A DNA stretch of 64,000 bases. Source: an uncultured Bdellovibrionales bacterium (GTDB taxonomy: Bacteria; Patescibacteriota; Minisyncoccia; Moranbacterales; UBA1568). The position numbers and the translations under genes were made by a program. The stretch is taken from NCBI GenBank assembly GCA_964580285.1, contig CAZOKB010000003.1, forward strand, positions 31,403 through 95,402. Reading direction: 5' to 3'. Shown one piece after another: positions 11,234-60,060 of this stretch; positions within the stretch are counted from its first letter, which is position 1, and every line of letters begins with the position of its first letter. The notes under the pieces were generated by a model. That model was not told the DNA's origin. It ran no database searches and saw only the letters and a program-made list of their open reading frames with translations.

Positions 11234-11417
11234 TTTTTTATGTTTAGACCAACACTTTATTGCCTCCCCTGTGGTGTCTGAGAACATTCAGCAGTCCATC
11301 GCGAAATACCGGTAGGAAAAATTTCCAAAGATGTCAGCTTGAGTTTTTTCTCTTGCTTATGTAAGAGAGAGAGGGTAAACTAAAATCAAGATTTTCTAAC
11401 ATAAAAAGCGTACTGTT

Positions 11418-43176: not shown

Positions 43177-43197
43177 GATGCGGAAGAGGAGATTCGG
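43177..43197. repeat. direct repeat of the tRNA-Ser 3' end (att-like), left boundary of island
   Basis: GATGCGGAAGAGGAG-ATTCG here versus GATGCGGAAGAGGAG-GG-ATTCG at 59970-59993: 15-nt exact match plus 5 further nt. Confidence 0.55.
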
Positions 43198-43473
43198 TCA
43201 CAGATAATCCGTTCGCCGTCGCGACCGGATTTCCGCGACCCCGACCGCGGTTCGACGTGCTTGTCGAACATCGCTCCGTCTTTCTCATCCCTCACGGAAG
43301 TGAAGCCCTGCCTGCCGGTAGGCAAGAGTTGATTTCCTCTCTTTCTCCGTTCACTCCATTCACTGCGGGCGTCATCGGTCTAGAACTTTGAGAAATCAAG
43401 CCGTTGAGGGATTTCTTGGAGGTCTTGGCCGACGGGTGAATTGGACTGCTCGGGTCGCGGTTTGGGGGGGGTA

Positions 43474-43553
43474 AAACGAGACAAATGAGACACAGGACAG
43501 ACCTTGTCTCATTTTAACATTTGAGACAGTAATATGTCTCGTTTAATCAATTG
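43474..43553. promoter_or_regulatory. cluster of nested inverted repeats built on GAGACA/TGTCTC at island edge
   Basis: Outer aaacgagaca…tgtctcgttt (10 bp), inner atgagaca…tgtctcat and tgagaca-gtaata-tgtctc. tcaattga palindrome at the stop of the cupredoxin gene. Confidence 0.4.
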
Positions 43554-44122
43554 ATGACAATCTTCCCTCGCATCTCCATATGCCCCTCTCCACACCAGAC
43601 CGAGCAGAAAAACTCAAATGTGCCTACCTTGCTAGCCACAAACTCCACAACCGCTCCATCTTCAGGAACATCTTGGTTCACTCCTAGATCAGGAATAACA
43701 AGACCGTGCTTCACATCGGCGTTATGGATGATGAGTCTTACCAGTTCACCTTTCTTGGCGGTAATAGTGGCAGGCTCCCACACATATTGTCTTGCTCCCA
43801 TATGGATAGTACGTTCCGTTCTTCCATTGACGACTTCCGTGCTCGGAGAAGGGAAACTTTCGAAATCTGATGACTTCTCCTTCGAAAGAAGATCGGGAGG
43901 AGAAGTTTTTGGAACAATCGACGTCTGGTCGCTACTCGAGGAACTACTTTCTAGTTTTTCGGTTACTTGTTGACTTATAGAAGGGGTCTCTGATATTCGT
44001 GTTTCTTTTGAAGACTGAGGAGATTCATCGGTATTTTTGGAAGATAGCGATTTATAAACCCACCATGAAACACCCTCCATAAGAGCGAAAATGACAACAA
44101 AAATGACGATGATTTTCTTCAT
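43547..44122 (-). CDS. membrane-anchored cupredoxin with CuA-type (COX2-like) binuclear copper motif
   Basis: N-terminal TM helix. H…C-x3-C-G-x2-H-x2-M pattern (HGLV…FFCSVWCGEGHMEM). No COX1 partner nearby. Confidence 0.6.
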   Translation of the reverse strand: MKKIIVIFVVIFALMEGVSWWVYKSLSSKNTDESPQSSKETRISETPSISQQVTEKLESSSSSSDQTSIVPKTSPPDLLSKEKSSDFESFPSPSTEVVNGRTERTIHMGARQYVWEPATITAKKGELVRLIIHNADVKHGLVIPDLGVNQDVPEDGAVVEFVASKVGTFEFFCSVWCGEGHMEMRGKIVIN

Positions 44123-44142
44123 AGCACTTATCTCGGCTAGAC

Positions 44143-46239
44143 CTAGAGTTCCGATTCAACTCTTTTAAGCAATACCGCATTCGTTGCAACAATGATAGAT
44201 GAAACACTCATGAGAAGAGCCGCAAATTCTGGCCGAAGCATAATGCCAAAATTTGGATACAAAATTCCACCGGCGACCGGTATGGCGAGAATATTGTAGA
44301 TCGAAGCCCAAAAAAGATTTTGCTTCATCTTGCGAACGGTCGCCTTACTTAGGGTTATGGCTCGGAGTATATCCATTGGATCAGACTTCATTAGTACCAC
44401 TTTCGCTGTCTCGATCGCGACATCCGTACCGGCACCAATTGCAATACCGACATCCGACTGAGCCAATGCTGGAGCATCATTAATGCCGTCTCCTACCATC
44501 GCTGTAAATTTCCCTTCCTTTTGGAGTGATTCAACATAGCGAGCTTTGTCTTCAGGGAAGACTTCCGCAAACAGGCGGCCGATGCCCAGCTTTTTTCCAA
44601 TGACCTCAACCGTTTTCTGATTGTCGCCACTAATAAGGGCTACTTCGATCCCGAGCTGCTTCATCCCATCAATAGCCTGTTTGGCTGTTGCCTTGATGGG
44701 ATCAGTGACCACGATGGCACCAGCTGCTTTTTTATCGACGGCTATGAACATGAGTGTTTTCCCTTCAGCCTCAAGCGGCTTTACCCGCACCTCGATACCT
44801 CCCAAGGGAACGTTTCGAAGAGCTAGAAGCTTCCGCGTCCCGATCGATACCGCTTGCCCATCGATCCGAGCCTCGATACCGTGTCCGGCGAGAGACAGGA
44901 AGTTCTCTACCGTCTGCGTCAAAGCGATTCCTCTCGATTCCGCCTCGCCGATAATCGCTCGCGCGAGCGGATGATTGGAACGCATTTCCGTTACCGCAGC
45001 CACAGCAAGCAATTGTTCCTCTGAGAAACCGTTAGAGACAATCACATCTGTTACTTTCGGCTTTCCTTCAGTGAGCGTACCAGTTTTGTCGAGTACGATG
45101 GCCTGGATCTTTGAAACCTGTTCAAGAGTCGGGGCATCTTTGATGAGGATATTATGCTTGGCACCAAGACCCGTTCCTACCGCTACGGCAGTCGGAGTTG
45201 CTAATCCCAGCGCGTCCGGACAGGCAATTACAACCGTAGCAATCGCGAAGGAGAGCGCCAAGAGAAATGGTGAGCCGACGATAAAATACCAGATAATAAA
45301 AACAAGGAGGCCCGACCCGATAGCTCCGATGACTAAGTATTTTGCGAACCTATCGGCGATTCTTTGCCCAGGGGACTTTGAGTTCTGAGCTGTTTCTACC
45401 AATTTCATGATCTGCGCGAGAGCTGTTTCATCACCCACCTTCGTGGCTCGGAAACGGAGTGAACCGTTCTGATTGATGGAGCCGCCCACGACAACATCAC
45501 CTGGTTTTTTTGTCACCGGAAGGGATTCTCCCGTTACCAACGATTCATCAACGGCCGATTCTCCTTCGGATACTTCGCCGTCCACCGGTATCTTGTCACC
45601 AGGCTTCAAAAGGAGCATATCTCCCACTTTGACTTCGCTGGTCGGCACAAGCTCTTCTTTGTCATCACGAATGATACGAGCTTGAGGAGGCACAAGGTTG
45701 AGGATGGCTCTCAGTGCGTCTGTTGTTCCTCGACGGGATTTCATTTCCATCCAGTGACCAAAAAGGACGAAGGTGATAAGCATGGCCGCCGCTTCGTAAT
45801 AGGAATCAGTGCCACCGATCAGAGTCAGCAAAACACTGAAGCCATAGGCTGCCGTGATACCAACCGCAATAAGCACGGCCATGTTCAGGGTCCTATTCTT
45901 CAACGCAAAATACGTCGAGTAGAGGAAAATCCAACCAGAATAAAAGAAGACTGGCGTGGTAAGAAGGAAAAGAAGCCACGGCAGCGGGAGTGGAGACGGA
46001 AGATTGAGACCAAGAAATTCTGTACCGAGGGGCGAGTAGAGAATGATCGGTATGGTGAATATGAGTGCGAAGAAGAACTTGCTTCGAATGTCTATTTCCA
46101 TGAGGCGAGCCATTTCCCGTCCGGCCAGTCCGGTATGATCCATGCCCATGGTCATCGACATGCTCATTTTGAACTTCGCCCAAAAACCCATCTGAGTCAT
46201 GTCATGAGGAACATGACCAGCGTGTTGACTATGATCCAT
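44143..46239 (-). CDS. P1B-type heavy-metal ATPase with His/Met-rich N-terminus and CPD transmembrane motif, no HMA domain
   Basis: [23 protein letters not shown]6 motif reads [14 protein letters not shown]-terminus MDHSQHAGHVPHDMTQM…. Confidence 0.85.
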   Translation of the reverse strand: MDHSQHAGHVPHDMTQMGFWAKFKMSMSMTMGMDHTGLAGREMARLMEIDIRSKFFFALIFTIPIILYSPLGTEFLGLNLPSPLPLPWLLFLLTTPVFFYSGWIFLYSTYFALKNRTLNMAVLIAVGITAAYGFSVLLTLIGGTDSYYEAAAMLITFVLFGHWMEMKSRRGTTDALRAILNLVPPQARIIRDDKEELVPTSEVKVGDMLLLKPGDKIPVDGEVSEGESAVDESLVTGESLPVTKKPGDVVVGGSINQNGSLRFRATKVGDETALAQIMKLVETAQNSKSPGQRIADRFAKYLVIGAIGSGLLVFIIWYFIVGSPFLLALSFAIATVVIACPDALGLATPTAVAVGTGLGAKHNILIKDAPTLEQVSKIQAIVLDKTGTLTEGKPKVTDVIVSNGFSEEQLLAVAAVTEMRSNHPLARAIIGEAESRGIALTQTVENFLSLAGHGIEARIDGQAVSIGTRKLLALRNVPLGGIEVRVKPLEAEGKTLMFIAVDKKAAGAIVVTDPIKATAKQAIDGMKQLGIEVALISGDNQKTVEVIGKKLGIGRLFAEVFPEDKARYVESLQKEGKFTAMVGDGINDAPALAQSDVGIAIGAGTDVAIETAKVVLMKSDPMDILRAITLSKATVRKMKQNLFWASIYNILAIPVAGGILYPNFGIMLRPEFAALLMSVSSIIVATNAVLLKRVESEL

Positions 46240-46241
46240 AA

Positions 46242-46448
46242 TTATTTATGTTCACTATTATGCCCATGACCCTTATGCATGAATAAGTGCATCAGCGGAC
46301 ACAAGAGAAGAACCAGGTACGGCAGTACTGAAAAGACATGCGACGTATGATTTCTTAAAAGAAATACTAGTCCGACCAAACCAATAATCAAAATAACTAG
46401 CCATGTCTTTCGAGAAAATGTTTCGGTCTGTTCCATACATTTGAACAA
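46242..46448 (-). CDS. DUF2933-like small membrane protein
   Basis: LLCPLMHLFMHKGHGH tail typical of DUF2933 proteins found next to metal ATPases. Confidence 0.5.
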   Translation of the reverse strand: MFKCMEQTETFSRKTWLVILIIGLVGLVFLLRNHTSHVFSVLPYLVLLLCPLMHLFMHKGHGHNSEHK

Positions 46449-46453
46449 AGGAA

Positions 46454-46675
46454 TTACACAAGCTCTCCGCGCTTCTCAAGCATCATATGGTGAATCGTCC
46501 CTACTTGAAGCCAGATGGCGATGAGAATGAGAATCCCGGCACACAGCAGAGCATCTATTTTTGTGATCCCAAAAACTCTATTATCGGCACCACCCAGTAC
46601 TGCCGCCAAGAATGAAATGACTCCCACAAAGCCCACCATAACACTGACAACATGCATTAATTTTGATAGCTTCAT
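46454..46675 (-). CDS. small two-TM membrane protein, hypothetical
   Basis: 73 aa, two hydrophobic helices. Confidence 0.4.
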   Translation of the reverse strand: MKLSKLMHVVSVMVGFVGVISFLAAVLGGADNRVFGITKIDALLCAGILILIAIWLQVGTIHHMMLEKRGELV

Positions 46676-46693
46676 ATTTTTGAATTGATTGGT

Positions 46694-47086
46694 TTATAAA
46701 AGAGAATCGACCACTTTCTTGAGTTTTGCTTCAACTTCAACCGCAATGCCAGATAGAGTGGGGTTTTCGATCATACTCATAGCCACTGTCGGAAGAACTG
46801 CCGATACAAATATTTTTCCGCCTTCTTCATACACGATAACATTGCAGGGCAAAAAGAGTCCTATTTCTTTTTCACTTTTTAGAGCCTGGAAAGCGAATGG
46901 CGGATTGCACGCCCCGAGAATAAGGTAATTTTCATACTCAACGTCCAGTTTTTTCTTGAGTGTCGCCTTCACATCGATTTCCGTAAGTACGCCAAACCCC
47001 TCCTTTGAGAGCTCTGCTTTCACTTTTGAAACCGCATCAACAAAAGAAAGAGATACTTCACGCTTATACCCGTATTTCATAGTCAT
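46694..47086 (-). CDS. DUF302-domain protein
   Basis: Start MTMKYGYK. G.FGVLTEIDVKATLKKKL…YLILGACNP pattern of DUF302. Confidence 0.6.
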   Translation of the reverse strand: MTMKYGYKREVSLSFVDAVSKVKAELSKEGFGVLTEIDVKATLKKKLDVEYENYLILGACNPPFAFQALKSEKEIGLFLPCNVIVYEEGGKIFVSAVLPTVAMSMIENPTLSGIAVEVEAKLKKVVDSLL

Positions 47087-47090
47087 TACG

Positions 47091-47339
47091 TTACGAGTTA
47101 AGATCTTTTTTCTTCGACTCAAATTCCTCCTTATCTATTTCCCCCTTGGCGTAGCGCTCCTTCAGGATATCTAATGCTGTGTTACTACCCCTCCTCCCTT
47201 CCGATCCTTGATTGGCAAGCCACTGAACGAAGGCGATGATGCCCCAAATAATGAACGCCCAAAAGGCAATCATTATGATCCATCCAAAAATCATTCCGAA
47301 TGATCCCAACCCGTATCCATAACCCCAGTTACCCATCAT
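47091..47339 (-). CDS. SHOCT-domain small membrane protein
   Basis: Two TM helices, then [26 protein letters not shown] (SHOCT motif). Confidence 0.6.
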
Positions 47340-47363
47340 ATGTCTTCACCTCCTTTCTTATGG

Positions 47364-47663
47364 TTACTTGTCATACGATTTCACCAATTCGATTATTTCT
47401 TCAAGCAACTTCTTTGATAGCTTGCTCTTTTTCAACTGAGAAGCGCTCTTGAGCCTTTCTTCAACATAACTCTGGATAATCCTTCTCTGGACGCTCCGCA
47501 GAAGCCCGAGAATCGCTGCATTCATCTGAAGCAAATCAATCGGTGGTCTTTTTTCTTCTAGCATCATAAGGACTTTCCGAATGTTGCTCGAGGCTTTTTT
47601 CAAACTGATTAGTACCTTCTTGTCCATATTTGAGCCATCAGAATTATTCTGAAACCGGTGCAT
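47364..47663 (-). CDS. CsoR/RcnR/FrmR-family (DUF156)-like repressor lacking canonical Cys/His ligands
   Basis: KKVLISLKKASSNIRKVLMMLEE…IDLLQMNAAILGLLRSV aligns with the CsoR helix pattern. The ligand positions are Pro/Ser/Tyr. Confidence 0.4.
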   Translation of the reverse strand: MHRFQNNSDGSNMDKKVLISLKKASSNIRKVLMMLEEKRPPIDLLQMNAAILGLLRSVQRRIIQSYVEERLKSASQLKKSKLSKKLLEEIIELVKSYDK

Positions 47664-48189
47664 ACTGCTCCTGATATTTCAGAGGATTAACGACACAATA
47701 CGCCTGCTGCGTTCGTCCCTTTATCAGGACGTACAGAGACACAGATAGAAGAATAATGGCCACAAAGGAAAGCTCTACGCCTCTAAAGGGTAGGTAGGCA
47801 GCGGCACCGCCGAATCCCAAAAGAGCCAGAATCGGCAGACCACAACTTGCACAACCGCTTCCGACTATCCCAAGTACAGAACTCCCGCCTATGGCTAGGT
47901 GCATTTTTCCAGAAGACCGTATCGTCCGAAGTCGCTCAAGCATGAACACAAAATTCAGACCGGTAAGCGTCGCGACCGTTATAAGCAAGATCAGACTGAA
48001 CGTACTCATAGCCGTCCACATGCCAACGAGCAGCGCGATGAGGATATCTACTCGATAATCAAACGAGTGTACGCCAAAGAGCGCATCCTTTACCAGCCCG
48101 GCATTCATGAGATACACAGTCGCTATGACATAGAGTACCGCGATTGTGGCTGCCGGAAGAATTACTTGTAAAGACCAGACACGTCTCAT
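47644..48189 (-). CDS. polytopic membrane protein with GCASCG motif, hypothetical
   Basis: 181 aa, 4-5 TM helices. Confidence 0.4.
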   Translation of the reverse strand: MRRVWSLQVILPAATIAVLYVIATVYLMNAGLVKDALFGVHSFDYRVDILIALLVGMWTAMSTFSLILLITVATLTGLNFVFMLERLRTIRSSGKMHLAIGGSSVLGIVGSGCASCGLPILALLGFGGAAAYLPFRGVELSFVAIILLSVSLYVLIKGRTQQAYCVVNPLKYQEQYAPVSE

Positions 48190-48202
48190 AGACTATTCTT
48201 CC

Positions 48203-49063
48203 TTATTTGTCATTTAACTTCTCATCAATAATGGTCTTGAATGCACTGAATGGCTGGGCGCCCACAACGAGCTGTCCTTCAATTTGACCATCCTTACTCG
48301 AAGCACCAACAACCCACGATGGCGTACCAGAAACTCCAACTGCCGAGCCATCAGCTATATCCTTTGCTACTTCGTCTTTGAACTTTCCGGAATCCAAACA
48401 TTGCTGGAACTGATCCACGTTGAGACCAAGGTTCTTCGCGATCACCGGTAGCTGCGTCAAAGCCAGACCTGTCCCACCGGCAGTAGTCTGAGTGAAGATT
48501 TGGTCGTGAAACTTGAAATACGTGGCATCATTGCTTTGACTTCTGGCACACTCGGCCGCTTCGGCTTCCTTTTGTGCATTCGCGTGAAACGACAACGGAA
48601 AATCACGATAGACCAATTTTACCTTGCCGGTATCAATGTAGTTCTTCTTGAGTTCTGGCAGAAGATCGGTAAACGACTTCTTGCAGAATGGACACTCGTA
48701 GTCCGAAAACTCGATTAATGTCACGGGGGCATTCTTATTTCCGAGTACTGGATCATTATCAACAGAAACTTTTACCGGGCCACTTGGCTGGCCAGCTGGT
48801 TGCTGGGCGGCCGGTGTTGGATTTCCCGATGGCTGTGCTACTATCGCTGAGCCAGAATCAGCTAACTTCTGAAACTTTCCACTGGAAGAAAGGATGCTAG
48901 CACTAATGATGAGCCCTCCGAGAAGAATTGATCCAGCGATAATCCAAGCTCCCCGGCTTGGCATATCTTTCCGCTCCCTCGCACCAACTCCTTTTCCCGC
49001 CTCGCTTTCTCCGCTCTTTGTTTTTACTTCTTCACCTTCTTCTTGTTTGTACCAGTCGTCCAT
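48203..49063 (-). CDS. DsbA-family thiol:disulfide oxidoreductase (island copy)
   Basis: TM anchor, Pro-rich linker, CPFC active site (EFSDYECPFCKK). Confidence 0.7.
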   Translation of the reverse strand: MDDWYKQEEGEEVKTKSGESEAGKGVGARERKDMPSRGAWIIAGSILLGGLIISASILSSSGKFQKLADSGSAIVAQPSGNPTPAAQQPAGQPSGPVKVSVDNDPVLGNKNAPVTLIEFSDYECPFCKKSFTDLLPELKKNYIDTGKVKLVYRDFPLSFHANAQKEAEAAECARSQSNDATYFKFHDQIFTQTTAGGTGLALTQLPVIAKNLGLNVDQFQQCLDSGKFKDEVAKDIADGSAVGVSGTPSWVVGASSKDGQIEGQLVVGAQPFSAFKTIIDEKLNDK

Positions 49064-49088
49064 AATGATGAGTATGTTGATTATTAAC

Positions 49089-50726
49089 TTAATTAGTCTT
49101 TCCCACGGTGTAAGAGAGCATCATTCCGCTCTCCGCATGTTCCAGAATGTGACAATGCGCGACCCAAGTACCTGGATTCGTCGCGTCAAGCAGGATATCG
49201 ACCGTGTCACCCTTGGCTACCAGTACCGTATCTGCCCACACAGGGTTTTCATTTCTCACGCCATTGGTTGAAAGCACCATGAGACGCTGCCCATGAAAGT
49301 GAACCGGATGCTGCATCGGGTGCATGGATTGTGGGTCGTTGAAGATGCGAATCTTTACCTTATCACCCACCTGAAAGTTCCAGTCCTTGATATCCATGTT
49401 TACTTTGCCGCTTGCTTTATCCACAAGCTTCCACTTCATCATGGCAGAAGTAGACTGAGCGTTCATGCCAGACATGGTATCTTCCCACTCCAGCGCATCG
49501 CCATCATCACCCATACCCATGCCTTTGTCTGACATAGCCATCCCGCCACTGCCCATCGAGTGCATCCCGCTCGGCATACCCTTACGCATCTCCGCTGTCA
49601 TATCGAGCGAAAGATTCAGGCTTTTGTCAGGAGCCTTTGAGAGGTACGTGTTCATGAGACCTTCCAGCTCAGAAACAACGGCTCCATTCGTCCGCGCAAC
49701 TGAAAACTCATTGCTATAGGAGGGATTAGCAAGTTCAGAGGAAACCGACACTTTACCCAAGGGGTATTCCTTATCAGGCGTCTGGTGTTTCATCGCATAC
49801 TCACCTGACTTTTCGAAGAAGACATCCACGACACGGCGCTCCCCGGGAGCAATCATTATCTGATCGACAAAAGTTTCTTTTTCATACTTTCCGACATCCG
49901 CACCCACGAGCTTCATCTTGGCTCCAGGAAGAACGAAATTGAAGAGTCGGGTATTAGCGGCATTCGTAAGATAGAGACGCGCCACTTCACCTTGTTTCGC
50001 CTGAAGTCTGTAATCTGTCTCGCCGTTCACGAGCATGACATTTCCAAAACGTCCCATGAGCGTGTGATCAGCCACCTTGGCATCAAACGGGAGCATGCCC
50101 TTGGCATCAAGCGCAATATCATCAAGCATGAGCGGGACTTCGCGATTCACCGGTGCCCAGTAAGCCGTGTCTTTCGGAGTCACAATGATGTTGGCATAGA
50201 GCCCAGATTCGAGTGTGTAATCAGTTCTGACGTGAGGGTGATACCAGAAGACGCCGGGGTCTGAAAACTTGAGCTTGTAGGTAAATGACTCGCCTACAGC
50301 GATTTCTTTTTGAGTCACCCCCGGTACGCCGTCAAACGGATTGTCCATCCGTACTCCATGAGCATGGAGTGTGGTCGCGATGTCGCCGTCATTCTTCAAA
50401 TTGACCGTAATCTCTGAACCCTCGGGAACGCGAATGGTCGGACCAGGGAGAGAACCATTGTAGCCGAGCATTTTCACAGTACGGCCAGCAATTACCTTTT
50501 TCACAGGCGTGATGGCGAGATCAATCGACTGGTTGTTCTTGAGATCGACGATCTGAGACTGGCCAGCCTGTTCTATACTCCCTGACGGCGGCGGGGCATC
50601 CAAACTTGTAGCCGTTTTTTTACTAGAACTAACTTTTGTTTGACGGTTCGTCATTCCATACCAGGTTAGAGAGCCCAGAATGATTGCCGTTACTCCCACC
50701 ACTACTGCTACTTGCTTGTTGTTCAT
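49089..50726 (-). CDS. multicopper oxidase (CueO/CopA-like) with Met-rich insert
   Basis: Copper-ligand motifs HAHG, WYHPH, HPxHxHG, HCHILEH. GMPSGMHSMGSGGMAMSDKGMGMG Met-rich segment. Signal peptide. Confidence 0.85.
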   Translation of the reverse strand: MNNKQVAVVVGVTAIILGSLTWYGMTNRQTKVSSSKKTATSLDAPPPSGSIEQAGQSQIVDLKNNQSIDLAITPVKKVIAGRTVKMLGYNGSLPGPTIRVPEGSEITVNLKNDGDIATTLHAHGVRMDNPFDGVPGVTQKEIAVGESFTYKLKFSDPGVFWYHPHVRTDYTLESGLYANIIVTPKDTAYWAPVNREVPLMLDDIALDAKGMLPFDAKVADHTLMGRFGNVMLVNGETDYRLQAKQGEVARLYLTNAANTRLFNFVLPGAKMKLVGADVGKYEKETFVDQIMIAPGERRVVDVFFEKSGEYAMKHQTPDKEYPLGKVSVSSELANPSYSNEFSVARTNGAVVSELEGLMNTYLSKAPDKSLNLSLDMTAEMRKGMPSGMHSMGSGGMAMSDKGMGMGDDGDALEWEDTMSGMNAQSTSAMMKWKLVDKASGKVNMDIKDWNFQVGDKVKIRIFNDPQSMHPMQHPVHFHGQRLMVLSTNGVRNENPVWADTVLVAKGDTVDILLDATNPGTWVAHCHILEHAESGMMLSYTVGKTN

Positions 50727-50755
50727 AGAAGTTATTTATTGTTTAAGGATTCACT

Positions 50756-51280
50756 TTAGAGAGTCATAAATTGCGAGAAGTCATTTCCCTTCTTCTGATA
50801 TATCTCGTATGGAGCCTGCTTCACGCCAGGCATGCCGGGCGTCCCTATCGGCATACCCGGGAGACCGATACCGTCGATATCCGGCTTTTCCGAAAGCAGT
50901 TTCTCGACAGCAATCAGTGGCACATGTCCTTCAACAAAGTAATCTCCGATCACGGTCGTATGGCAGCTCTGCTTATCTTCTTCAATACCATATTGTTCCT
51001 TTATGGAACCCATGTCCTGAGTGGATTTCACGTCGACCTCATATCCTTGCCTCTTCAACTCTGCAATGTAGCCATTGCAACACCCGCAATTCGGCGCTTT
51101 ATACACTGTTGCTTTGCGCTCAATTGGAAGGGCAGCAATTTCTCCCGCGCTTTCCTGCACAGCCGTTTCTGTAGCAGCTGTTTTTTCGATCCCGGAATTT
51201 TTTTCAGGACCGGAAAATAACACTCTTCCTCCAATCACTATTCCGAGCACTATAATTCCTATAAAGAATAGGCGTATCAT
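50756..51280 (-). CDS. DUF411 (CopG-like) metal-binding protein
   Basis: N-terminal TM helix, CGCC motif (YKAPNCGCCNGY), conserved His. Confidence 0.6.
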   Translation of the reverse strand: MIRLFFIGIIVLGIVIGGRVLFSGPEKNSGIEKTAATETAVQESAGEIAALPIERKATVYKAPNCGCCNGYIAELKRQGYEVDVKSTQDMGSIKEQYGIEEDKQSCHTTVIGDYFVEGHVPLIAVEKLLSEKPDIDGIGLPGMPIGTPGMPGVKQAPYEIYQKKGNDFSQFMTL

Positions 51281-51307
51281 AAGACTTTATTCATAATTAT
51301 AAGGACA

Positions 51308-54300
51308 CTACTTTTTGAATCGAAACTCAGAGCCGACAAAGTGGAAGGCATCCAAAACTGATTTCGTTTCGGGCAATACTCCGGCTACAATCACTGCGTT
51401 ACCGAAAAAGTTATCAATCCGATCCCCCTCTTTATCGAAGAGTTTTTCGGCTCGCATCACCGCTGCTTCCGCAGAACCAATATAGATCGGTTGGTAGCGT
51501 TTGCCGCCGATTTTGACCGGAGCAAAGGCATCGTCAGCCATCATCTTACGGAAAGCCTCCGGAACATTATTCTGGTTAACACGATAGAAGAACTTCAACT
51601 CTCCATTGTCCGTCAGCAAAGCATCGGTTTCCGCCACAGTTTTTAGTCCATCGAAGCTTCCCTTGCTCAGGATATGAAACTCATCAAGAACGGTCCCGGT
51701 AGACGCCAGTACTCCGCCGACACGTATTTCAGGCGCACCGAAAAATTCCTTGAGTGTATCGCCTGATTTTTCGAAGAGTTTTTCCTGTTGCATCAATGCC
51801 GCTTCATTCGCTCCGATAAGCATCATATTGCCAGAAAGCGCTAGCGCCCCATCCGATACCTTCAAAGACCGTTCCGGATTTTCAGCTCCCAAGAAAAGCT
51901 TTGGCATTTCTCCGGCAAGATTGAGTTTGATCGGGTTATCGGCAATATAGGCCGCAATTTCCTTGGTCGCGCCAAACGCCATCTCTCCAGTCTTTGCTGT
52001 TTCCATTGATTGTCCACTGAATTTGGCAAATTGGAAGAAGAGAGCTGAGAACGCGACAACCATCACGAGCGGGGCTGCCAAAGAAACAAAGTTCCTTCTT
52101 CCTGGTCTGAAGAAACGGAGGAGGAGAGAATTACCTACGACAGAGATGGAGGACAGAGCCATAGCAAGACCAGCAAGCTCTGGCTTCAAGACCAAACCAA
52201 CCCCAGCAAACACTCGGGCTGCCACTGGAATACCCATCACATTGTAGAAGAGCGCGAAGAACATATTTTGCTTGATCTTTGACATGCTTTCTTTAGAGAG
52301 CTCGATAGCCGTCACCACGTCATGAACGTCGCTTCGCATGAGAACGATATCACCCGCCTCCATAGCAACATCCGTTCCCGATCCCATGGCTACCCCCAGA
52401 TCAGCTTGTGCCAATGCTGGAGCATCATTGATCCCATCACCCACCATAGCGACCCGTTTCCCTTTCTTCTGAAGTTCCTTCACATGTTCTGCCTTGTCCT
52501 CAGGCAATACTTCAGCAAACACATTGGTCACCCCAACCTGCGAGGCGATGGCGTTGGCCGTCCGAGCATTATCGCCAGTGATCATGTAGACTTCGATTCC
52601 CATTCCTGCCAACTTTTTCACAGCGTCACGCGAAGATTCTTTCACGGTATCGGCGACCGCGACCGCTCCGAGAACTTTTTCCCGAGTAGCCAAAATCATA
52701 GCGGTTTTCCCTTGTTCTTCCAGGCGCATGAGTTTCCGATTGATGCGATCAAGGGGGAGTTTGATAACATCGGTGATAAGTCTCCGATTTCCGAAGAAAT
52801 ATTCGGTACCAGCGATACTTCCTTGCACACCATGTCCTGGGATGGCCTTGAAGTCGCTCACGTCTTCCAAAGCACAACCTTCTTCTTTTGAATACTCATA
52901 GATGGCTTCAGCTAAAGGATGTTCCGAAAGCTTTTCCAAGCTGGCAGCTATTTCCAAGACTTCATCTTCATCGGCATCATTGAAAGTAAGGATATCTGTC
53001 ACCTCGGGCTTTCCTTTCGTGAGAGTGCCGGTCTTATCAAAGATAACCGCATTGATTTTGCAGGCGGCTTCCAACGCTTCGCCACCTTTGATGAGAATTC
53101 CGTTCTCTGCGCCTTTCCCCGTACCGACCATGAGCGCTGTCGGCGTCGCTAGTCCCAAGGCACAAGGACAGGCAATCACTATGACAGCGGTAAAGGCCAT
53201 GAGAGCAAACGCCAGGGTAGCCCCCAAGAAGAAGTACCAGATAACGAATGTAAGGAGAGCAATCCCGATCACGGCTGGGACAAACCAAGCAGAAATACGG
53301 TCGGCAAAATTCTGAATCGGCGCTTTCGAGCCCTGCGCTTCTTCGATAAGGCGAATAATCTGCGCCAACGCTGTTTCGCTTCCTATCCGAGTCGCTTCAA
53401 ATTCAAACCCGCCCGTCTTGTTGACCGTCCCGCCGATCACCATGTCGCCTTCATTTTTTTCTATCGGGAGACTTTCTCCAGTAATCATAGATTCATCAAC
53501 CGCTGAGGAACCTTTGATAATTTTTCCATCGACAGGGATCTTCTCGCCGGGACGAACAATGATGATATCCCCGTGAACGACTGCGTCCACCGGTACATCG
53601 AGCGTTTCACCATTTCGCATTACCCGAGCGGTTTTGGCCTGGAGACCCATGAGCTTTTTGATGGCGTCAGACGTCCTTCCCTTGGTTCGAACCTCAAGCC
53701 ATTTACCGAGAATGACAAAGGTGATGAGGAAAGCCGCTGTTTCAAAGTAAAGCTCTGGGATTTTGGAACCGTTGAGACCGATGACGCTATCATTTTTCAC
53801 TACATAAAGAACAAAGTTCACAAGGCTATAGAAGAACGCCGTCGACGTACCGATTGCAATAAGACTATCCATGTTGAATGTCTTCATCTTAAGCGCCGAC
53901 CAAGCACCTTTGTAGAATCCCGCTCCGATAATGAATTGGATGGGAATGGTGAAAAGCAGGGAGAATATGCCGACATAGGGAAGAAGCGATGCTTTTCCAG
54001 GGAGCACAAAGAAATCAAGTAGCATGAAATAGAGCATCGGGAGGCTCATAATGAAGCCGAAGATGAACTTGTTGAAGTAACTGCTGATTTCCCTATCGCG
54101 CTTTCGACGCTCGTACTCCGTATCTTTCGGGTCAACTTCTTCTGCTTTGTATCCAGCTTTCGCCACCGCTTGTTTGAGTGTGGTGACCTCTACTTTGCCC
54201 TCATCAAACACCACCAGGGCCTTTTCGGCCGCGAAATTCACATTCGCCTGTTTGACCCCCGGAACTTTCTTGAGCGAGCGTTCGATGAGGTTGGCACACG

Positions 54301-54916
54301 ATGAACAGTGCATCCCAAACAAGGAAAGACTCATCCGTCTCTGCGGATCAAGGCTTGTACCAACTTTTGCCCCTGTTCCTTGATTGATAACAGGAACGAT
54401 TGTTTCTTGATTCGGCAGATTGCTTCCATTTCGAGAAAGACTTCCTCCGATGCCCTGAATACTGCCTATCGCTCTCAGAATTTGGTTGACGATATCTTTC
54501 GACGGAGTACCTGTCTCTGGCATATCAACTTCTGCCGATTGACTGTTCAAGATGGTTCCCTCGAAGTATGGTCTGCCATTCCCATCTTCCAAAACTTTTC
54601 CATCGGCTTCTACACGAGACTCGATTTTTACTTTCAGTCGAACATCCATTGCCTTCTCACTATCCTCCTCGTGGTTCTCTTTTATTGAGGCAACACCCTC
54701 ATCCGAAACAATTCCCTCATATCCCGCTCGCCTGATGGCCTCTAGCGATTGCTCGAGGGTGCTTCTCGTCTCATCGAGAAGAAATACCCCTTGACCAGCC
54801 TCATGGTCAATCTGAATCTCACTGATTCCAGGAAGCTCCTTGAGTTCTTCACCGATGAGCATTTCACAGGAGTGACACGTCATTCCCTTAATGGATACTG
54901 TTATTCGTTTAGTCAT
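51308..54916 (-). CDS. copA: copper-translocating P1B-1 ATPase (CopA-like, 1202 aa) with two N-terminal HMA domains and ~350-aa C-terminal extension (extra TM + duplicated domain)
   Basis: GMTCHSCE and [11 protein letters not shown] motifs. [29 protein letters not shown]. After the usual C-terminus, one more TM helix and two ~45-aa repeats (EKLFEKSGD…, EKLFDKEGD…). Confidence 0.85.
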
Positions 54917-54949
54917 AAGAAGATTTCATAGAGTTATCAATCAAATACT

Positions 54950-55156
54950 TTACGCGGTCGTCACGATATATTCCATTCCCTGAAGCGCATTTTCAACTTC
55001 TGATAAGTTTATTTCGCGGTTCGCGGTGAGTTCGGCTTTCCCATCTTTTGTGATAGAAAACTCCGAAGTTCCATCAATTTTTTTCATTTTCATCGTGATA
55101 AGTTTGACGCATGAATCACAATGCATGCCCGCAACATTGAAGAGTAGTTTGTACAT
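54950..55156 (-). CDS. copZ: CopZ-like HMA copper chaperone
   Basis: 68 aa with a GMHCDSC motif. Confidence 0.75.
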   Translation of the reverse strand: MYKLLFNVAGMHCDSCVKLITMKMKKIDGTSEFSITKDGKAELTANREINLSEVENALQGMEYIVTTA

Positions 55157-55201
55157 AATCTTATGGTTAATTCAAGGCTTGTTTTGATTCTGGTTGATTT
55201 A

Positions 55202-56572
55202 TCAGCTGGCAGCCACGACGGTAAACACGCCCCGATACATACCCATAGAACATGAGAATGGGATCTGTCCAACTTCTTTCGGTGTGAACTCAATGACGTT
55301 TTGTCCAAGTGACAGATTCTTTCGGACCCCGATTTTCGAAGCAATAACCGTTGAAGCACAGGTGTACTGATCTTTGGCATCAATAACCCATTTGACTGGG
55401 ATGCCTTGCTGAATGGTGAATTTGCTCGGGGCATAGCCACTGGAGCTTTCTGTCATGCGCACAACTTGAACGCCATTTTCAATTTTTACGTTCGGATCAG
55501 TCGACTGGGCAGCTACCGCTTTTGTATCAGCTCCAGAAGAAACACTTAGTTGCCAGTCCGTCAGATTGAGACCGTTGTTAATATTGAAGAAGGCCAGTGC
55601 TATCACAACGATTCCGGCGAATTTGAAGAATCGTTGCGCAAAAATGCCCTTGATGACAGAAGTTAATCCACCGATACCCAGAAGCCCCGGGGCTGTTCCC
55701 AGAGCGAAGAGTCCCATGATGAGACTTCCCTGCATGAAGCTTCCCGTACTTACAGCGTAGATTTGCATTGCTTGAGTGAAACCGCAGGGCAGAAAAAAGG
55801 TCATGGCCCCGAGAACAAATGAATTTTTGTGACTGTACTCTCTCTGTTTGTCGCTGATACCCAGTAACCGACTGATTCCTTTAGGAAGAGCAAAACTTAC
55901 TGTTTCCAACCGCGGGCACACGCCTGTCAGTTTCACGCCAAGGAGCAGCATGACAACACCGACGGCTATGGTAACAATACCGAGAGTGGTTCCAGAAAGT
56001 TGGAGAAATGAACCGAGCGACCCAAGAAGACCACCGAGGACGGCGTACGAGAGAATGCGACCAAGATTGAAGAAAAGATGCGGGCGAAACTTCTGCAATG
56101 GAGTCGCTTCGGGATGTTTTTCTGAATGTCGGGCAGAAATTCCCAGCACCAATCCTCCTACTAAGGCAAGGCAGGTAGAAAATCCTGCTGTGAGTCCGAC
56201 GAGGAGCGCCACCGAAAGACTCGTCGGTTTCGCTGCGTTTCCGACATTTATGAGATCAGAGAACCCAAATTCTTTGAGGATGAAGTAGAGTCCTACGACG
56301 AACAAAAATGCGATGCCCAGATCCTTATAATCACTCGCATTCCGACTGAACCAAGGCTTTTTCCCGACGACTCCGATCGTATACCCCGCTTCCCGCACGG
56401 CATTTTCAATCGCCTGTTTGCTCGGTTTGACTTCGTACGAAACTTCAGCAACTCCTTTCTTGTAATTGACGTAACTTTTTTTGATTTCTGGAATTTCGGA
56501 GAGCTTATCTTCAATAAGAATTTCACAAGATCTGCAGTGCATTCCAGCGATAGGTACTAAAAGTTTTTTCAT
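55202..56572 (-). CDS. tri-domain protein: HMA domain + polytopic permease (TauE/SafE- or DsbD_2-like) + C-terminal cupredoxin-like domain
   Basis: Start MKKLLVPIAGMHCRSCE. ~8 TM helices with conserved Cys (STCLAL, LPCGF). C-terminal beta domain with C…CSMGMY. Confidence 0.55.
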   Translation of the reverse strand: MKKLLVPIAGMHCRSCEILIEDKLSEIPEIKKSYVNYKKGVAEVSYEVKPSKQAIENAVREAGYTIGVVGKKPWFSRNASDYKDLGIAFLFVVGLYFILKEFGFSDLINVGNAAKPTSLSVALLVGLTAGFSTCLALVGGLVLGISARHSEKHPEATPLQKFRPHLFFNLGRILSYAVLGGLLGSLGSFLQLSGTTLGIVTIAVGVVMLLLGVKLTGVCPRLETVSFALPKGISRLLGISDKQREYSHKNSFVLGAMTFFLPCGFTQAMQIYAVSTGSFMQGSLIMGLFALGTAPGLLGIGGLTSVIKGIFAQRFFKFAGIVVIALAFFNINNGLNLTDWQLSVSSGADTKAVAAQSTDPNVKIENGVQVVRMTESSSGYAPSKFTIQQGIPVKWVIDAKDQYTCASTVIASKIGVRKNLSLGQNVIEFTPKEVGQIPFSCSMGMYRGVFTVVAAS

Positions 56573-56696
56573 AGAATACATTGATTTGACGATTAAAACC
56601 CATTCACATAATAAAATGGGTACAAAAAGTGCCAGGGCAGAGAAAGAGTATCCAAAAGGACAAACTGTCTCAGCTTCCTGACACACTTCAATCAAT

Positions 56697-57119
56697 CTAT
56701 TCTTTTTTGGCTACGGTAAGAATGAGGTCCTGCAAGGGCAGGATCTCGGGCGGTTCGAAGGCTTCGATGTTCAATCCGTCAACAAGTGATGGAGCTATAA
56801 AAACTCCCTGTAAGGCGAGATTTGGAAGTTGCAAAATCTCTTGAGATTTTTTTATCGTTCCGACATTATCTTTGGTTTGTCCACACTCCAGAGAGCAGTT
56901 CTTTACATGACTCTGAGTGAGCGGTAGATGTACCATGGAGTTCATGCTGCTATCAGTCCCCATAATCCCATTATCCTGTTCGTCTACAGGGCTTTGATTG
57001 CTCATATCCATCATTCCAGAGGAGGCTTGGGCTGTGAGCATAGGAAAAACACACGGCCCACCAGTTGAGAGCATTACCGCTAAAATAAGCACAAGAAGAG
57101 GGATTTTTTTGATCTTCAT
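56697..57119 (-). CDS. secreted Met-rich protein, putative periplasmic copper binder
   Basis: Signal peptide MKIKKIPLLVLILAVMLS. SSGMMDMSNQSP…MGTDSSMNSMVH. Confidence 0.45.
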   Translation of the reverse strand: MKIKKIPLLVLILAVMLSTGGPCVFPMLTAQASSGMMDMSNQSPVDEQDNGIMGTDSSMNSMVHLPLTQSHVKNCSLECGQTKDNVGTIKKSQEILQLPNLALQGVFIAPSLVDGLNIEAFEPPEILPLQDLILTVAKKE

Positions 57120-57314
57120 CATAAAGCCCCTCAATAGTACCATGATTTTTACAAAAACTCCATAAACCTGTGGTCTCATGGAGTGCAGTATGTATGCGAA
57201 TTTATGCAATGGCTTGATGCTAGGTTTTGTTTAAAAATGAATCGCTATTATGCAATAAATTTCTATTTTTGCATAGGCTTAGCAAAACAAGTGATCTGCG
57301 TCATCAATAGGTAT

Positions 57315-58634
57315 ATGGAACCATATACCACAGCCAGAATCGGTGACGAAATAGCTCCACCTATCCAAAAGATCCGGTATGTCCTCTATGCTAGAAAATC
57401 AACCGAATCAGAAGAACGCCAGGTACTCTCCATTGATTCCCAAGTGAAGGAAATGCTCCAACTCGCCGAGCGAGACAATCTCGATATAGTTGAGATCCGG
57501 CGTGAATCCCACAGCGCAAAGGAATCTGGCCAGCGGCCAGTCTATCGGGAAATCTTGGAGGATATCCGAGGTGGCAGGTTCAACGGCATTCTCACCTGGG
57601 CACCGGATCGACTTTCTCGTAATGCTGGTGATCTAGGAAGCGTCGTTGACCTCATGGATCAGCAACTCCTCATGGAAATCCGAACCTACGGACAAACATT
57701 CAAAAACTCTCCCAATGAAAAGTTTTTGCTGATGATCCTCTGTAGTCAAGCAAAGCTGGAAAATGACAACAAGAGTATCAATGTAAAACGAGGACTGCGA
57801 ACGAGAGTTGAAATGGGATTATGGCCAGGTCCACCGCCTACTGGATACATGAAAGAAAAGCGAATGGATCGAAAATGTGAAACACTGATTGATCCAGAAC
57901 GGGCACCAGTGATCAAAAAGATGTTTGAAAAAGTGGCCTATGAACATTGGAGCGGACGAAAGATCTACAATTGGCTTAAATTTGATCTGAACTTCAAAAG
58001 TGCTGCTGGAAAAAAGAATTTAAGCCTCGGCAATATTTACCGGCTCTTAGATAACACCTTCTATTACGGAGTGTTTGAATATCCAAGAAAATCAGGAAAC
58101 TGGTACACAGGAAAACACAAGCCAATCATCACCAAAGAGCTTTTTGATCTCGTTCAGAGACAGATAAAGAGCCAAATCTTAAGGGTTGAGGGAAAAGAGT
58201 TCGCTTTCACCAAAATGATGACTTGCAGATTATGTGGATCAGGGATAAGCGCTGACGAGAAATTCAAAAAGAAAAGAGGTGGCGGGGTTCATCGGTATGT
58301 CTACTACGGCTGTACCAAAGCCCGAGGAGCTGATTGTAAATGTGGCTACACTGAAGAAAAAGAAATCCTAAAACAATTTGAAGAATTGATAGACAAGATA
58401 AACCTCAATGAGATCGAGGTAAAGGAAAAGATCAAAGCAGATATTGAGCAGTTTTCCAAAATGCAGAAGTTCTTTCTCGGAACAAAAGAAAAGATTAGCG
58501 TCCCGAGCGTTGATATCCGAGGATATGCTAAGTACGTCCTCAGAGAAGGTACGAATGAAGAAAAACGAGAAATACTGGGCTGTTTGAAAAGCCGGATCTA
58601 CCTCGCAGAGAAGAAAATAACTCTAACCACATGA
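57315..58634 (+). CDS. large serine recombinase (resolvase domain + recombinase domain + zinc ribbon)
   Basis: YARKSTESEERQVLSIDSQ with catalytic Ser. Recombinase domain. CxxC…C.C zinc-ribbon (CRLCGSG…YYGCTKARGADCKCG). Confidence 0.85.
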   Translation: MEPYTTARIGDEIAPPIQKIRYVLYARKSTESEERQVLSIDSQVKEMLQLAERDNLDIVEIRRESHSAKESGQRPVYREILEDIRGGRFNGILTWAPDRLSRNAGDLGSVVDLMDQQLLMEIRTYGQTFKNSPNEKFLLMILCSQAKLENDNKSINVKRGLRTRVEMGLWPGPPPTGYMKEKRMDRKCETLIDPERAPVIKKMFEKVAYEHWSGRKIYNWLKFDLNFKSAAGKKNLSLGNIYRLLDNTFYYGVFEYPRKSGNWYTGKHKPIITKELFDLVQRQIKSQILRVEGKEFAFTKMMTCRLCGSGISADEKFKKKRGGGVHRYVYYGCTKARGADCKCGYTEEKEILKQFEELIDKINLNEIEVKEKIKADIEQFSKMQKFFLGTKEKISVPSVDIRGYAKYVLREGTNEEKREILGCLKSRIYLAEKKITLTT

Positions 58635-58746
58635 AACCACCATAGAATCGGAAGGTTGATTTTGGTCCCTTAAAAAGCTATACTGGTCGTACAATGTTGC
58701 CTAAACTTCTGCCCCAAAAAGGTAGCGGCATGGCTCAATAATAGAA

Positions 58747-58793
58747 CCTACGTCAATAAAAACGGTCTCGTGACCGGCACTTATTGACGTAGG
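58747..58793. promoter_or_regulatory. 47-nt inverted repeat with nested hairpin downstream of recombinase (candidate recombination site)
   Basis: cctacgtcaataa-N21-ttattgacgtagg. A third cctacgtcaa copy lies at 58903. Confidence 0.35.
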
Positions 58794-58916
58794 TCGATAG
58801 CTCGAAAGAGTTGTCGGGCAGTTTCGAAAGGAATTGTCGTCCGGTTCGCGGGACCATTTTTGTATCTTAAAAAATGAACCAGCAGTTTTTCAATCAATAA
58901 ATCCTACGTCAAATTT

Positions 58917-59873
58917 ATGAAAAAATGCCCCCATTGTTCTGAAGAGATTCAGGACGAAGCAAGTAAGTGTCGATTTTGTGGCGAATGGCTAAACAAGATC
59001 AATGCAAGCCAACCTATCCAAAAAACACCGGAGCAAAAAGAAACTGAGGCGAAACAAAACAAGAAGATTCTCAAAGTTATTGGATGGGTAGTCGCTATCT
59101 TTTTTGGAATCACCTTCTGGTATGTGGCGCTGCCGATTCTGGTTCCAGTTCTCATTTATAAAAAGACAAAACTTCCTCCCAAAAAGAAGCTCACCTTATC
59201 TGGAGCCGCTTTTGTGGTACTTGCACTGATCGGAGGGAGCTTTCTCTACTCGGCTAATCGAGTTCCAACGATTAAGATCACTGAGCCAGAAAATAATCTC
59301 ACCCTCCAAGAGAAGAAGGTGACTGTGAAAGGATCTATCGAACCAAGTAGTGCGGAATTGAAAGTTGGAGGACAAATTATCCCAACAACAAACGGTGAAT
59401 TTTCCTACGATGCTAGACTCGGCAACGAAAACAACACCTTCACCTTTGTCGTCCGAAATGGATCCAACGATGCTCAAGCTACAATCACTATCAATCGAGC
59501 TTTCACTGATGAAGAAAGAGCTGAAATAGAACGGCAAGCCCTAGAAGCTAAGAGACAGCGAGAAGAGGAAGTAAAGCAAAAAGCAGAGGAGGAAAAGCAG
59601 AAGCAGGAAGCGCTCAAGCGAAGCCACATATCAGAGGCCCAAGCTTGCTCTCAAGCAAGAGTTGAGTCCATGCTTAAAGCTCCAAAGACAGCTGACTTCC
59701 CAACTTCATCACACTGGAAGATTACTCCTCTCGGTGATGATAAGTATCGGACAATAAGCTATGTGGATGCAGAGAATAGTTTCGGTGCACAGATTAGATC
59801 GAACTTTATCTGCGAAATAACGGTTACCGATCCGGCAAATGTGCTCTGTACTGGGACATGCACTCTTGAATAA
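58917..59873 (+). CDS. zinc-ribbon membrane protein with coiled-coil, hypothetical
   Basis: CPHCSEE…CRFCGEW N-terminal Zn ribbon, one TM helix, E/K/Q-rich coiled coil, Cys-containing C-terminal domain. Confidence 0.5.
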   Translation: MKKCPHCSEEIQDEASKCRFCGEWLNKINASQPIQKTPEQKETEAKQNKKILKVIGWVVAIFFGITFWYVALPILVPVLIYKKTKLPPKKKLTLSGAAFVVLALIGGSFLYSANRVPTIKITEPENNLTLQEKKVTVKGSIEPSSAELKVGGQIIPTTNGEFSYDARLGNENNTFTFVVRNGSNDAQATITINRAFTDEERAEIERQALEAKRQREEEVKQKAEEEKQKQEALKRSHISEAQACSQARVESMLKAPKTADFPTSSHWKITPLGDDKYRTISYVDAENSFGAQIRSNFICEITVTDPANVLCTGTCTLE

Positions 59874-59973
59874 CTGACTGAGTAACTAACAAAAAACAGC
59901 GATCATTCCGACTGCTGTTTTTTGTTGTTTGAATCTATACCGACAAGTAGCATGTCGTGCTACCTGTTAGATG

Positions 59974-60060
59974 CGGAAGAGGAGGGATTCGAACCCTCGG
60001 TAGGGTTTCCCCTACGCTTGCTTTCCAAGCAAGTACCTTAAACCACTCGGCCACCCTTCC
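59974..60060 (-). tRNA. tRNA-Ser (anticodon GGA)
   Basis: Hand-folded from the reverse complement: acceptor ggaaggg/ctcttcc (one G-U), anticodon stem cttgc/gcaag with loop TTGGAAA, long variable arm gtaggggaaaccctac, T-arm gaggg-TTCGAAT-ccctc. No CCA encoded. Confidence 0.8.

Follow-up and report, generated by a model that had tools for sequence, protein, structure and literature searches.

The window analysed here is a stretch of 64,000 nucleotides (all of the DNA that was examined) from contig CAZOKB010000003.1 (GenBank assembly GCA_964580285.1), in which an island of predicted copper and metal homeostasis genes adjoins a tRNA-Ser(GGA) gene and carries the gene of a large serine recombinase (LSR). 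A preliminary description, made from the letters alone, had presumed a host like those of the Candidate Phyla Radiation (CPR), and the pyruvate kinase encoded beside the tRNA, 91% identical to that of a Moraniibacteriota metagenome-assembled genome, agrees with this and places the host in Candidatus Moraniibacteriota. The same description had recognized the 3′ end of tRNA-Ser(GGA) as the site of a horizontally mobile metal-resistance island, as we also find, and had taken a 15(+5)-nt repeat of this 3′ end as the border of the island and the product of its attachment, which our comparisons contradict. The features on which the argument depends are given below in order from the tRNA; the loci used for comparison bear L numbers.

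59973-60060, minus strand: tRNA-Ser(GGA), the integration target (attB left half, from T-loop to 3′ end), called by ARAGORN and by the Rfam tRNA model (58.1 bits)
59972-59976, no strand: tRNA-proximal core TGCGG (CCGCA on the tRNA strand) with the crossover placed within it, from the comparison of GGA and GCT insertions
59947-59971, minus strand: P′ (tRNA-proximal) arm, TCTAACAGGTAGCACGACATGCTAC in tRNA-strand reading, with the same motif at other tRNA-Ser junctions
58698-58838, plus strand: LOOT RNA (RF03000), 53.7 bits against a gathering score of 46.4
57315-58634, plus strand: LSR of 439 aa, the island integrase (PF00239, PF07508, PF13408)
57232-57314, plus strand: conserved LSR leader, a probable promoter/operator with TTGCATAGRCTTAGCAA, kept in L125 and L127 next to different genes
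43547-57209, minus strand (all genes): metal cargo block, from Pfam and motifs, with a syntenic island in L136/L137
43364-43402, minus strand: P arm with the distal core, GGCTTGATTTCTCAAAGTTCTAGACCGATGACGCCCGCA on the tRNA strand, with homologous arms in other islands
43198-43363, minus strand: E170, a structured element of ~170 nt outside the island, found directly after the tRNA in L028, L045 and L108/L112
43177-43197, minus strand: second, displaced tRNA-Ser 3′ end with which E170 closes (the repeat of the preliminary description), in the same layout without an island in L045 and L111
43100-43176, minus strand: ancestral trailer of the tRNA gene, whose homologue directly follows the tRNA in L040

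Ends of the island and attachment arms

The island-specific sequence extends from 43369 to 59971 (16,603 bp) and has the 5-bp core TGCGG on either side (43364-43368 and 59972-59976), nothing longer being common to both junctions; with one copy of the core it forms an element of 16.6 kb. Copies of the island that are 99.5-100% identical in nucleotide sequence stand beside tRNA-Ser(GCT) in eight other, independent assemblies, while the neighbour of the island in the window and L122 is tRNA-Ser(GGA). Sequencing runs that carry the island include SRR12404964, SRR8944128, SRR12487045 and SRR20718484. It has thus moved between two tRNA-Ser genes. The junction is base-identical at both sites (...CCGCA/TCTAACAGG, the slash marking the junction, reading into the P′ arm). 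The sequence of tRNA-Ser(GCT) is host-specific right up to CCGCA; the host tRNA sequence differs between the GGA and GCT insertions up to the core, and the island is identical beyond it.

The P′ arm follows the consensus CCGC-N10-TAGCACGAnAyGCT, with TAGCACGA always 10 nt away from CCGC, at seven tRNA-Ser junctions and at a tandem junction in L125. The anticodons at six of the seven junctions are GGA, GCT (twice), CGA, TGA and one called 'act' by ARAGORN, the tRNA at the seventh being cut by a contig end, and at every one of the junctions a gene of the LSR family converges on the tRNA-Ser. The loci with this arm include L127, a complete genome of Campbellbacteria in which it adjoins tRNA-Ser(CGA), L136 with tRNA-Ser(GCT), L138 with tRNA-Ser(TGA), and L137 and L141 with further tRNA-Ser genes.

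The distal, or P, arm was located by homology between islands and has the consensus GGCTTG-N10-GTTCTA-N12-CCGC(A). The islands in L125 (two copies), L127, L138 and L141 have this arm at their far end, and unrelated host DNA adjoins it in every case. In L127 it falls in the gap between the TsaD and Cap15 genes, which had earlier been chosen from gene content as the probable boundary, and contig L130 ends exactly at the distal core (...GACGCCCGC). The arm resembles the tRNA 3′ end at 13 of 27 positions counted by hand, GTTC and CCGCA among them. This is a loose mimicry, which would fit one protein reading the left half-sites of both attP and attB. A C8 tract (near 43454-43461, minus strand) lies between the cupredoxin gene and the distal arm, with C7 in L130 and L027.

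Five further islands with an LSR of this family possess both arms, which span about 25-39 bp and are thus conserved family-wide. Four of these islands abut tRNA-Ser genes (CGA, TGA, GCT and ARAGORN 'act'), and the fifth, L125, stands in tandem: L125 and L136 are parts of one 362-kb contig in which two islands have accreted one after the other and which ends at tRNA-Ser(GCT). At the tandem junction the P arm is fused to the P′ arm in an attP-like arrangement that unites the two ends seen in the window, with no E170 in between. The attP sequence can be reconstructed as GGCTTGATTTCTCAAAGTTCTAGACCGATGACGCCCGCATCTAACAGGTAGCACGACATGCTAC. The predicted circular junction of the excised island is ...GACCGATGACGCCCGCATCTAACAGGTAGCACG and the predicted empty site, attB, is ...CCTCCTCTTCCGCAGTGAATGGAGTG.

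The serine recombinase and its family

The recombinase gene starts at 57315, which yields the 439 aa seen in all homologues, and not at an upstream GTG at 57183. Its identification as an LSR in the preliminary description holds: Pfam finds the Resolvase domain (PF00239, E = 4e-19), the Recombinase domain (PF07508, E = 4.5e-14) and the recombinase zinc ribbon (PF13408), the latter a marginal pass at 26.3 bits against a cut-off of 25.3 and a domain that, in precomputed Pfam lists, is present in some homologues and absent from others. The catalytic motifs are intact, with YARKSTESEERQ (YARKST) at residue 27 and DRLSR at residue 98. The catalytic domain, the Recombinase domain with its zinc ribbon and the short att core that define such systems are all present. 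The leader of the gene contains the palindrome-like TTGCATAGRCTTAGCAA, a candidate promoter/operator.

More than 8000 proteins match the LSR at E <= 1e-20. The best 120 clusters are 84-100% identical and include proteins of Campbell-, Taylor- and Nomurabacteria. The closest solved structure is that of SPbeta SprA (E = 2e-11), and no phage integrase in the searched collection exceeds about 27% identity. Of all the genes in the seven islands, that of the LSR alone accompanies the arms in every case. We identified no transfer genes in the window's island.

In three other islands a module lies upstream of the integrase (L125 5078-9904, L127 4252-8745, L141 6280-9111). It encodes a LexA-like S24 repressor, an N6/N4 DNA methylase and a small open reading frame (ORF), and in L125 and L127 also a protein of ~500 aa with faint terminase and DEAD matches. 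The module, which the window's island lacks, hints at a phage-satellite-like or packaging-related mode of transfer.

The tRNA-end repeat and the E170 element

The window contains two copies of the 15-mer GATGCGGAAGAGGAG and no more (43177-43191 and 59970-59984), against a chance expectation of 0.01, and none of 100 shuffles gave two matches, so that the preliminary description was right to regard it as non-random. It had assigned 11 of the 15 bases to the tRNA and four to the flank; this stands with the Rfam boundary of the tRNA (59974-60060), whereas with the ARAGORN boundary (59973-60060) the division is 12 and three. The extension by ATTCG across a 2-nt gap is present as described (...GAGgggATTCG at 59985-59993, ...GAG-ATTCG at 43192-43197).

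The repeat is nevertheless not the att duplication of the island. L028 and L045 have no island at this site, and there E170 comes immediately after the tRNA and ends in a second copy of the tRNA 3′ end; the copy in L045 matches at 19 of 20 nt and carries CCA, and that in L028 is degenerate. In L040 the sequence that lies beyond the repeat in the window directly follows the tRNA, with about 39 of 48 positions identical by hand count. Together these three arrangements indicate that E170 and its repeat are a separate, older insertion of ~190 bp. Judged from these layouts, E170 was already beside the tRNA when the island arrived, and the island sits between the two. Its distal end lies at 43364-43368, 172 bp inside the border that the repeat had suggested.

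The alternative proposed at first, in which the mobile unit runs from 43177 to 59970, includes E170 and recombined within the 15-21-nt identity of the tRNA 3′ ends, draws on the highly non-random 15-mer and on L040, compared with which the whole stretch from the end of the tRNA to the repeat is an insertion between the ancestral tRNA and its trailer. It is at odds with the tRNA-E170-repeat order without an island in L028 and L045 and with E170-like inserts at tRNA-Tyr. In L017, where the repeat is mutated and half of E170 deleted, a different cargo abuts E170 at the same base as in the window, right after CCGCA. Moreover, the distal arm is conserved in other hosts with no E170 beyond it, the tandem junction of L125 joins the two ends of the window's island directly, and the tRNA of the tRNA-Ser(GCT) site keeps its host's own sequence as far as CCGCA. 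We therefore regard this alternative as very improbable.

E170 itself, which closes with 15-21 nt copied from the local tRNA 3′ end, recurs at 5138-5308 of L028, 1446-1619 of L045 and 267-383 of L111. In L111 an E170-related core with a matching repeat stands beside tRNA-Tyr(GTA). In L109 an E170-like core follows tRNA-Ser(GCT), on a contig that ends before any repeat is visible, and decayed copies are found in L017, L037, L043 and L112. Its predicted hairpins show compensatory changes in 12 of 35 pairs; a metagenome scan for the core returned five loci, too few for strong covariation statistics. No Rfam family matched E170, and its core had no matches in viral contigs. No recombinase gene was seen beside it, and the ORFs downstream of the partial copy in L112, judged from their translations without a Pfam search, include no obvious integrase. 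A different insert of ~165 nt in L047 (8437-8600) has the same design. Inserts of this type may be miniature integrative elements, integrative elements in decay or an RNA gene. Readings of E170 as a guide-RNA-like scaffold of the TnpB, IscB or CAST kind, a T-loop intron, a tRNA-like minihelix or a retroelement primer-binding site were considered from the sequence and set aside; there is no nuclease or reverse-transcriptase gene among the annotated ORFs near E170, and no consistent pairing was seen by eye.

Displaced fragments of the tRNA-Ser 3′ end also follow tRNA-Ser(GGA) in L035 (at +23), L036 (+135), L038 (+131), L041 (+1338) and L043 (+28). Many Moraniibacteriota genomes contain one or more such fragments, some of which match the tRNA of another species and not the local one; they look like scars of repeated integration at a hot spot.

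Strain variation at the site

Where contigs encode an identical pyruvate kinase, nine of the ten loci break off within or at the tRNA, and four different sequences follow the tRNA in conspecific contigs. On the other side, among contigs with an identical BipA gene, L011 runs into the copper genes, and L012 and L017 carry other genes and diverge from the window at 43099. In L028, the closest species in the genome collection, neither copper genes nor an LSR gene lie between the tRNA and hyp148/BipA. Because the site varies between strains and L028 is without the copper genes, the copper segment is an insertion.

The contents of the site are diverse. The gap between E170 and hyp148 in L028 (5399-10202) contains genes for a LexA-like S24 repressor, a CBASS-type nucleotidyltransferase (SMODS/AGS_C) and an Nramp transporter, island-like accessory modules without an integrase that may represent a decayed island. 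In L012 (1-2860) and L017 (3843-6653) an extra 2.8 kb, encoding an EgtD-like Methyltransf_33 protein and a PAP2 phosphatase, lies between the old copy of the tRNA end and hyp148; in these strains the 3′ half of E170 is missing and the repeat has changed to ...CTTCTATATC. In the conspecific contig L001 the C-terminal portion of a different LSR gene (10924-11776) converges on the tRNA, with ~33% identity where the proteins align. This second LSR family (~32-33% identical) also converges on tRNA-Ser(GGA) in L039, L050 and L051, with a different junction motif, CCGC(C)A followed by AAATYGRAAATC or TTCGAAATC.

Such mosaicism downstream of the tRNA, with the modules of L028 and of L012/L017 as examples, could also be explained if homologous recombination in the conserved flanks, the tRNA and E170/hyp148, exchanged a strain-variable region in which the LSR is a passenger or an inactive relic, and the lack of any observed excision product would agree with this. 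Homologous exchange does not account for the same island at two different tRNA-Ser genes with a base-identical junction, nor for the conservation of both arms across several CPR lineages with unrelated flanks. The LSR is, in addition, far more conserved than the cargo, at 86% amino-acid identity between L127 and the window against 30-48% for the cargo. We consider this explanation very improbable.

A tyrosine recombinase might instead act in trans on the T-loop of the tRNA. The 3′ ends of tRNA genes are classical targets of tyrosine integrases (PMC4383910, PMC5704250), and a Phage_integrase-family gene is indeed present in the conserved backbone, a XerC/D-like gene ~10 kb upstream that lies, in conspecific loci, between the PMT_2 genes and a LysM-CHAP gene. 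This gene belongs to the backbone of all strains, with or without the island; the core of the island is only 5 bp long; and it is the LSR gene alone that accompanies the arms throughout the family. An origin of the insertion by this route is, in our estimation, extremely improbable.

Proposed mechanism of integration

Taking these comparisons together, we favour, with a probability of about 85%, an integrative element of 16.6 kb that was inserted by its own LSR at the extreme 3′ end of tRNA-Ser(GGA), between the tRNA and E170. By analogy with characterized serine integrases, dimers of the integrase would bind attP, at the distal arm that mimics the tRNA end and at the proximal arm (N10-TAGCACGAnAyGCT), and would also bind attB, whose left half would be the T-loop and acceptor strand of tRNA-Ser (GTTCGAA...TCCGC). 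The LSR would then cut with a 2-bp stagger within CCGCA, rotate the subunits and religate, and the island would so have entered between the tRNA and the older ~190-bp insert formed by E170 and the displaced tRNA 3′-end copy. The element may still be active today and may move between cells. With the crossover at the discriminator/CCA position, the tRNA remains whole and the duplication amounts to just 4-5 bp. A very short repeated core is the expected product of a serine integrase.

Several points weigh against this interpretation. The right half of attB, that is the DNA after the tRNA, is not conserved among the sites, which is unusual for LSRs. The two attP arms show no clear inverted symmetry, and a search for the distal arm in inverted orientation, with the proximal arm as the model, gave no convincing match in the window, L125 or L127. 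No recombination directionality factor was identified. An empty attB, with the tRNA joined to E170, was found in the sister species L028 but not in the same species. A scan of viral contigs with the attP pattern gave no matches to a free circular attP junction. Finally, we infer the recombination activity of the LSR from comparative data only.

LOOT RNA beside the integrase

Just downstream of the LSR gene, the window contains a LOOT RNA that matches the Rfam model over its full length (positions 1-121 of 121) and above the gathering threshold, with scores of 58.6-84.2 bits for the copies in related islands. These lie at 11383-11512 in L125 and, on the minus strand, at 9709-9837 in L127, 2629-2769 in L136, 1469-1609 in L137 and 9714-9832 in L141. 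The RNA is found within ~170 nt of the LSR gene in six of the seven distinct islands, mostly just downstream on the same strand, and upstream and divergent in two of them; in L125 it is conserved with compensatory changes. Its occurrence beside the LSR gene in two orientations suggests a gene in its own right, with a genetic linkage to the integrase. Duplex energies for a pairing between LOOT and the LSR leader were no better than those of shuffled controls.

The only description of LOOT that we retrieved refers to it as a 'metagenomic-based RNA' (PMC7779021), and the literature searched holds no statement of a link with LSRs. LOOT could be a trans-acting RNA that controls the expression or directionality of the integrase or contributes to the choice of tRNA-Ser ends. 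That it is a functional component of the LSR system and, separately, that E170 is a new structured miniature element associated with tRNA ends are speculative proposals, which we rate as rather unlikely. If LOOT were such a component, LSR, LOOT and att arms would together form a CPR-wide platform for shuttling genes, and LOOT would be the first RNA partner of a serine integrase. An orphan RNA in any case gains a host clade, the CPR, and a genetic partner, which makes its function testable.

Cargo and composition

The genes of the metal cargo block and the slot between integrase and tRNA are as follows.

56697-57209, minus strand: moderately Met-rich ORF of 170 aa
55202-56695, minus strand: HMA-DsbD_2-cupredoxin fusion (Pfam)
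54950-55156, minus strand: CopZ (Pfam)
51308-54916, minus strand: CopA of 1202 aa (CPC motif, HMA domains)
50756-51280, minus strand: DUF411 protein (Pfam)
49089-50726, minus strand: multicopper oxidase (Pfam)
48203-49063, minus strand: DsbA (Pfam)
47644-48189, minus strand: ORF of 181 aa
47364-47663, minus strand: CsoR-like protein (Pfam)
47091-47339, minus strand: SHOCT protein (Pfam)
46694-47122, minus strand: DUF302 protein (Pfam)
46454-46675, minus strand: ORF of 73 aa
46242-46448, minus strand: DUF2933 protein (Pfam)
44143-46239, minus strand: CPD-type P1B ATPase of 698 aa with an ACPDALG motif (Pfam, motifs)
43547-44122, minus strand: cupredoxin of 191 aa (Pfam)
58917-59873, plus strand: Zn-ribbon/Ig-like membrane protein of 318 aa (Pfam)

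Pfam and motif searches bear out every gene call of the preliminary description. Both ATPases have the E1-E2 ATPase and HAD domains, the DKTGT motif and a CPx motif of the P1B type: in CopA, CPC is at residue 583, DKTGT at 627 and there are two HMA domains with CxxC, whereas the 698-aa ATPase has CPD at 340, DKTGT at 384 and no HMA domain. From these family assignments the cargo is probably a copper/metal homeostasis set. A source outside the host lineage had been expected for it; the nearest named relatives of the multicopper oxidase belong instead to the CPR, among them Dojkabacteria (88%) and Moranbacteria (81%), with the exception of one 64% match labelled Undibacterium. The gene pool circulates within the CPR. 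The composition of the island deviates from that of its flanks so mildly that it is not diagnostic: the GC content is 46.6% against 49-50%, and the tetranucleotide distance between island and flanks is 0.0121, compared with 0.0090 ± 0.0011 for host windows of the same size.

The 318-aa Zn-ribbon protein accompanies the LSR in L113-L124. The slot between integrase and tRNA nonetheless holds variable cargo, with other genes in L125, L136 and L138. Across the islands we found copper/metal sets, defence genes of the CBASS, Thoeris and Pycsar-like kinds, the LexA-like/methylase/terminase-like module and an ABC transporter. Elsewhere in the window, two adjacent PMT_2 glycosyltransferase genes share a 130-nt stretch of 72% identity (35927-36056 and 37821-37950), and the strongest GC and AT skew is seen at 36-39 kb, with a GC skew down to -0.43.

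Comparison with known systems

Viewed as a family, these elements combine an LSR, usually a LOOT RNA and the targeting of tRNA-Ser across the CPR. They act as shuttles for metal-resistance and anti-phage genes, and tandem stacks of them can form at the tRNA. As the family is widespread and highly conserved and carries such cargo, it is probably a major route of gene flow in the CPR/Patescibacteria. No prior description of an LSR at tRNA genes in the CPR, of its targeting of tRNA-Ser or of the function of LOOT was met in the literature searched, although island databases may hold such calls. Almost no mobile elements or genetic tools have been described for the CPR, and a native integrase with its putative attP and attB may therefore offer a lead for engineering.

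The protein families of the cargo (CopA, CopZ, CsoR and a CueO-like oxidase) are those of the cop/cue/pco clusters, from which the set of the island differs by sitting on a CPR-specific mobile backbone. The LOOT copy of the window corresponds to the full RF03000 model, and is here given a CPR host clade and a fixed LSR partner.

The element behaves as an LSR integrative element in the niche of a tRNA island. With classical tRNA islands (those of the Islander type, the P4-like tyrosine integrases and the sublocation classes of Williams 2002) the island shares integration at a tRNA 3′ end, a functional tRNA and adaptive cargo, and its family shares tandem accretion at a hot spot, where the element closest to the tRNA is the most recent. 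Unlike them, it has no Phage_integrase-family gene between 43364 and 59976 according to Pfam, and it leaves behind no long displaced piece of the tRNA; the nearby piece of 15-21 nt belongs to E170. The tRNA-like sequence at its far end, the P arm, is borne by the island and not derived from the host. A long tRNA-derived repeat beside an island is thus not necessarily its att site, as hot spots gather scars and serine integrases leave almost none.

LSR elements and prophages (SPbeta SprA/YokA, A118/LI integrase, TP901-1, Bxb1, Tn4451 TnpX and SCCmec CcrAB) have the same Resolvase-Recombinase-Zn ribbon architecture and, like the island, short att sites, few repeated base pairs and an integrase near one end. 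Integrative and mobilizable elements with serine recombinases likewise have very short repeats, and disrupt dispensable protein-coding genes, the 3′ ends of tRNA genes being used by tyrosine integrases (PMC5704250; for the latter also PMC4383910). The island differs from the known LSR elements by its target at the extreme 3′ end of tRNA-Ser, with the gene left intact and at least four isoacceptors in use, by its tRNA-mimic attP arm, by its CPR host range and by the adjacent non-coding RNA LOOT. It belongs to a serine integrase family that inserts at the terminal bases of tRNA-Ser genes without damage to them and whose two arms are now mapped, and this family departs from the view of tRNA 3′ ends as the territory of tyrosine integrases.

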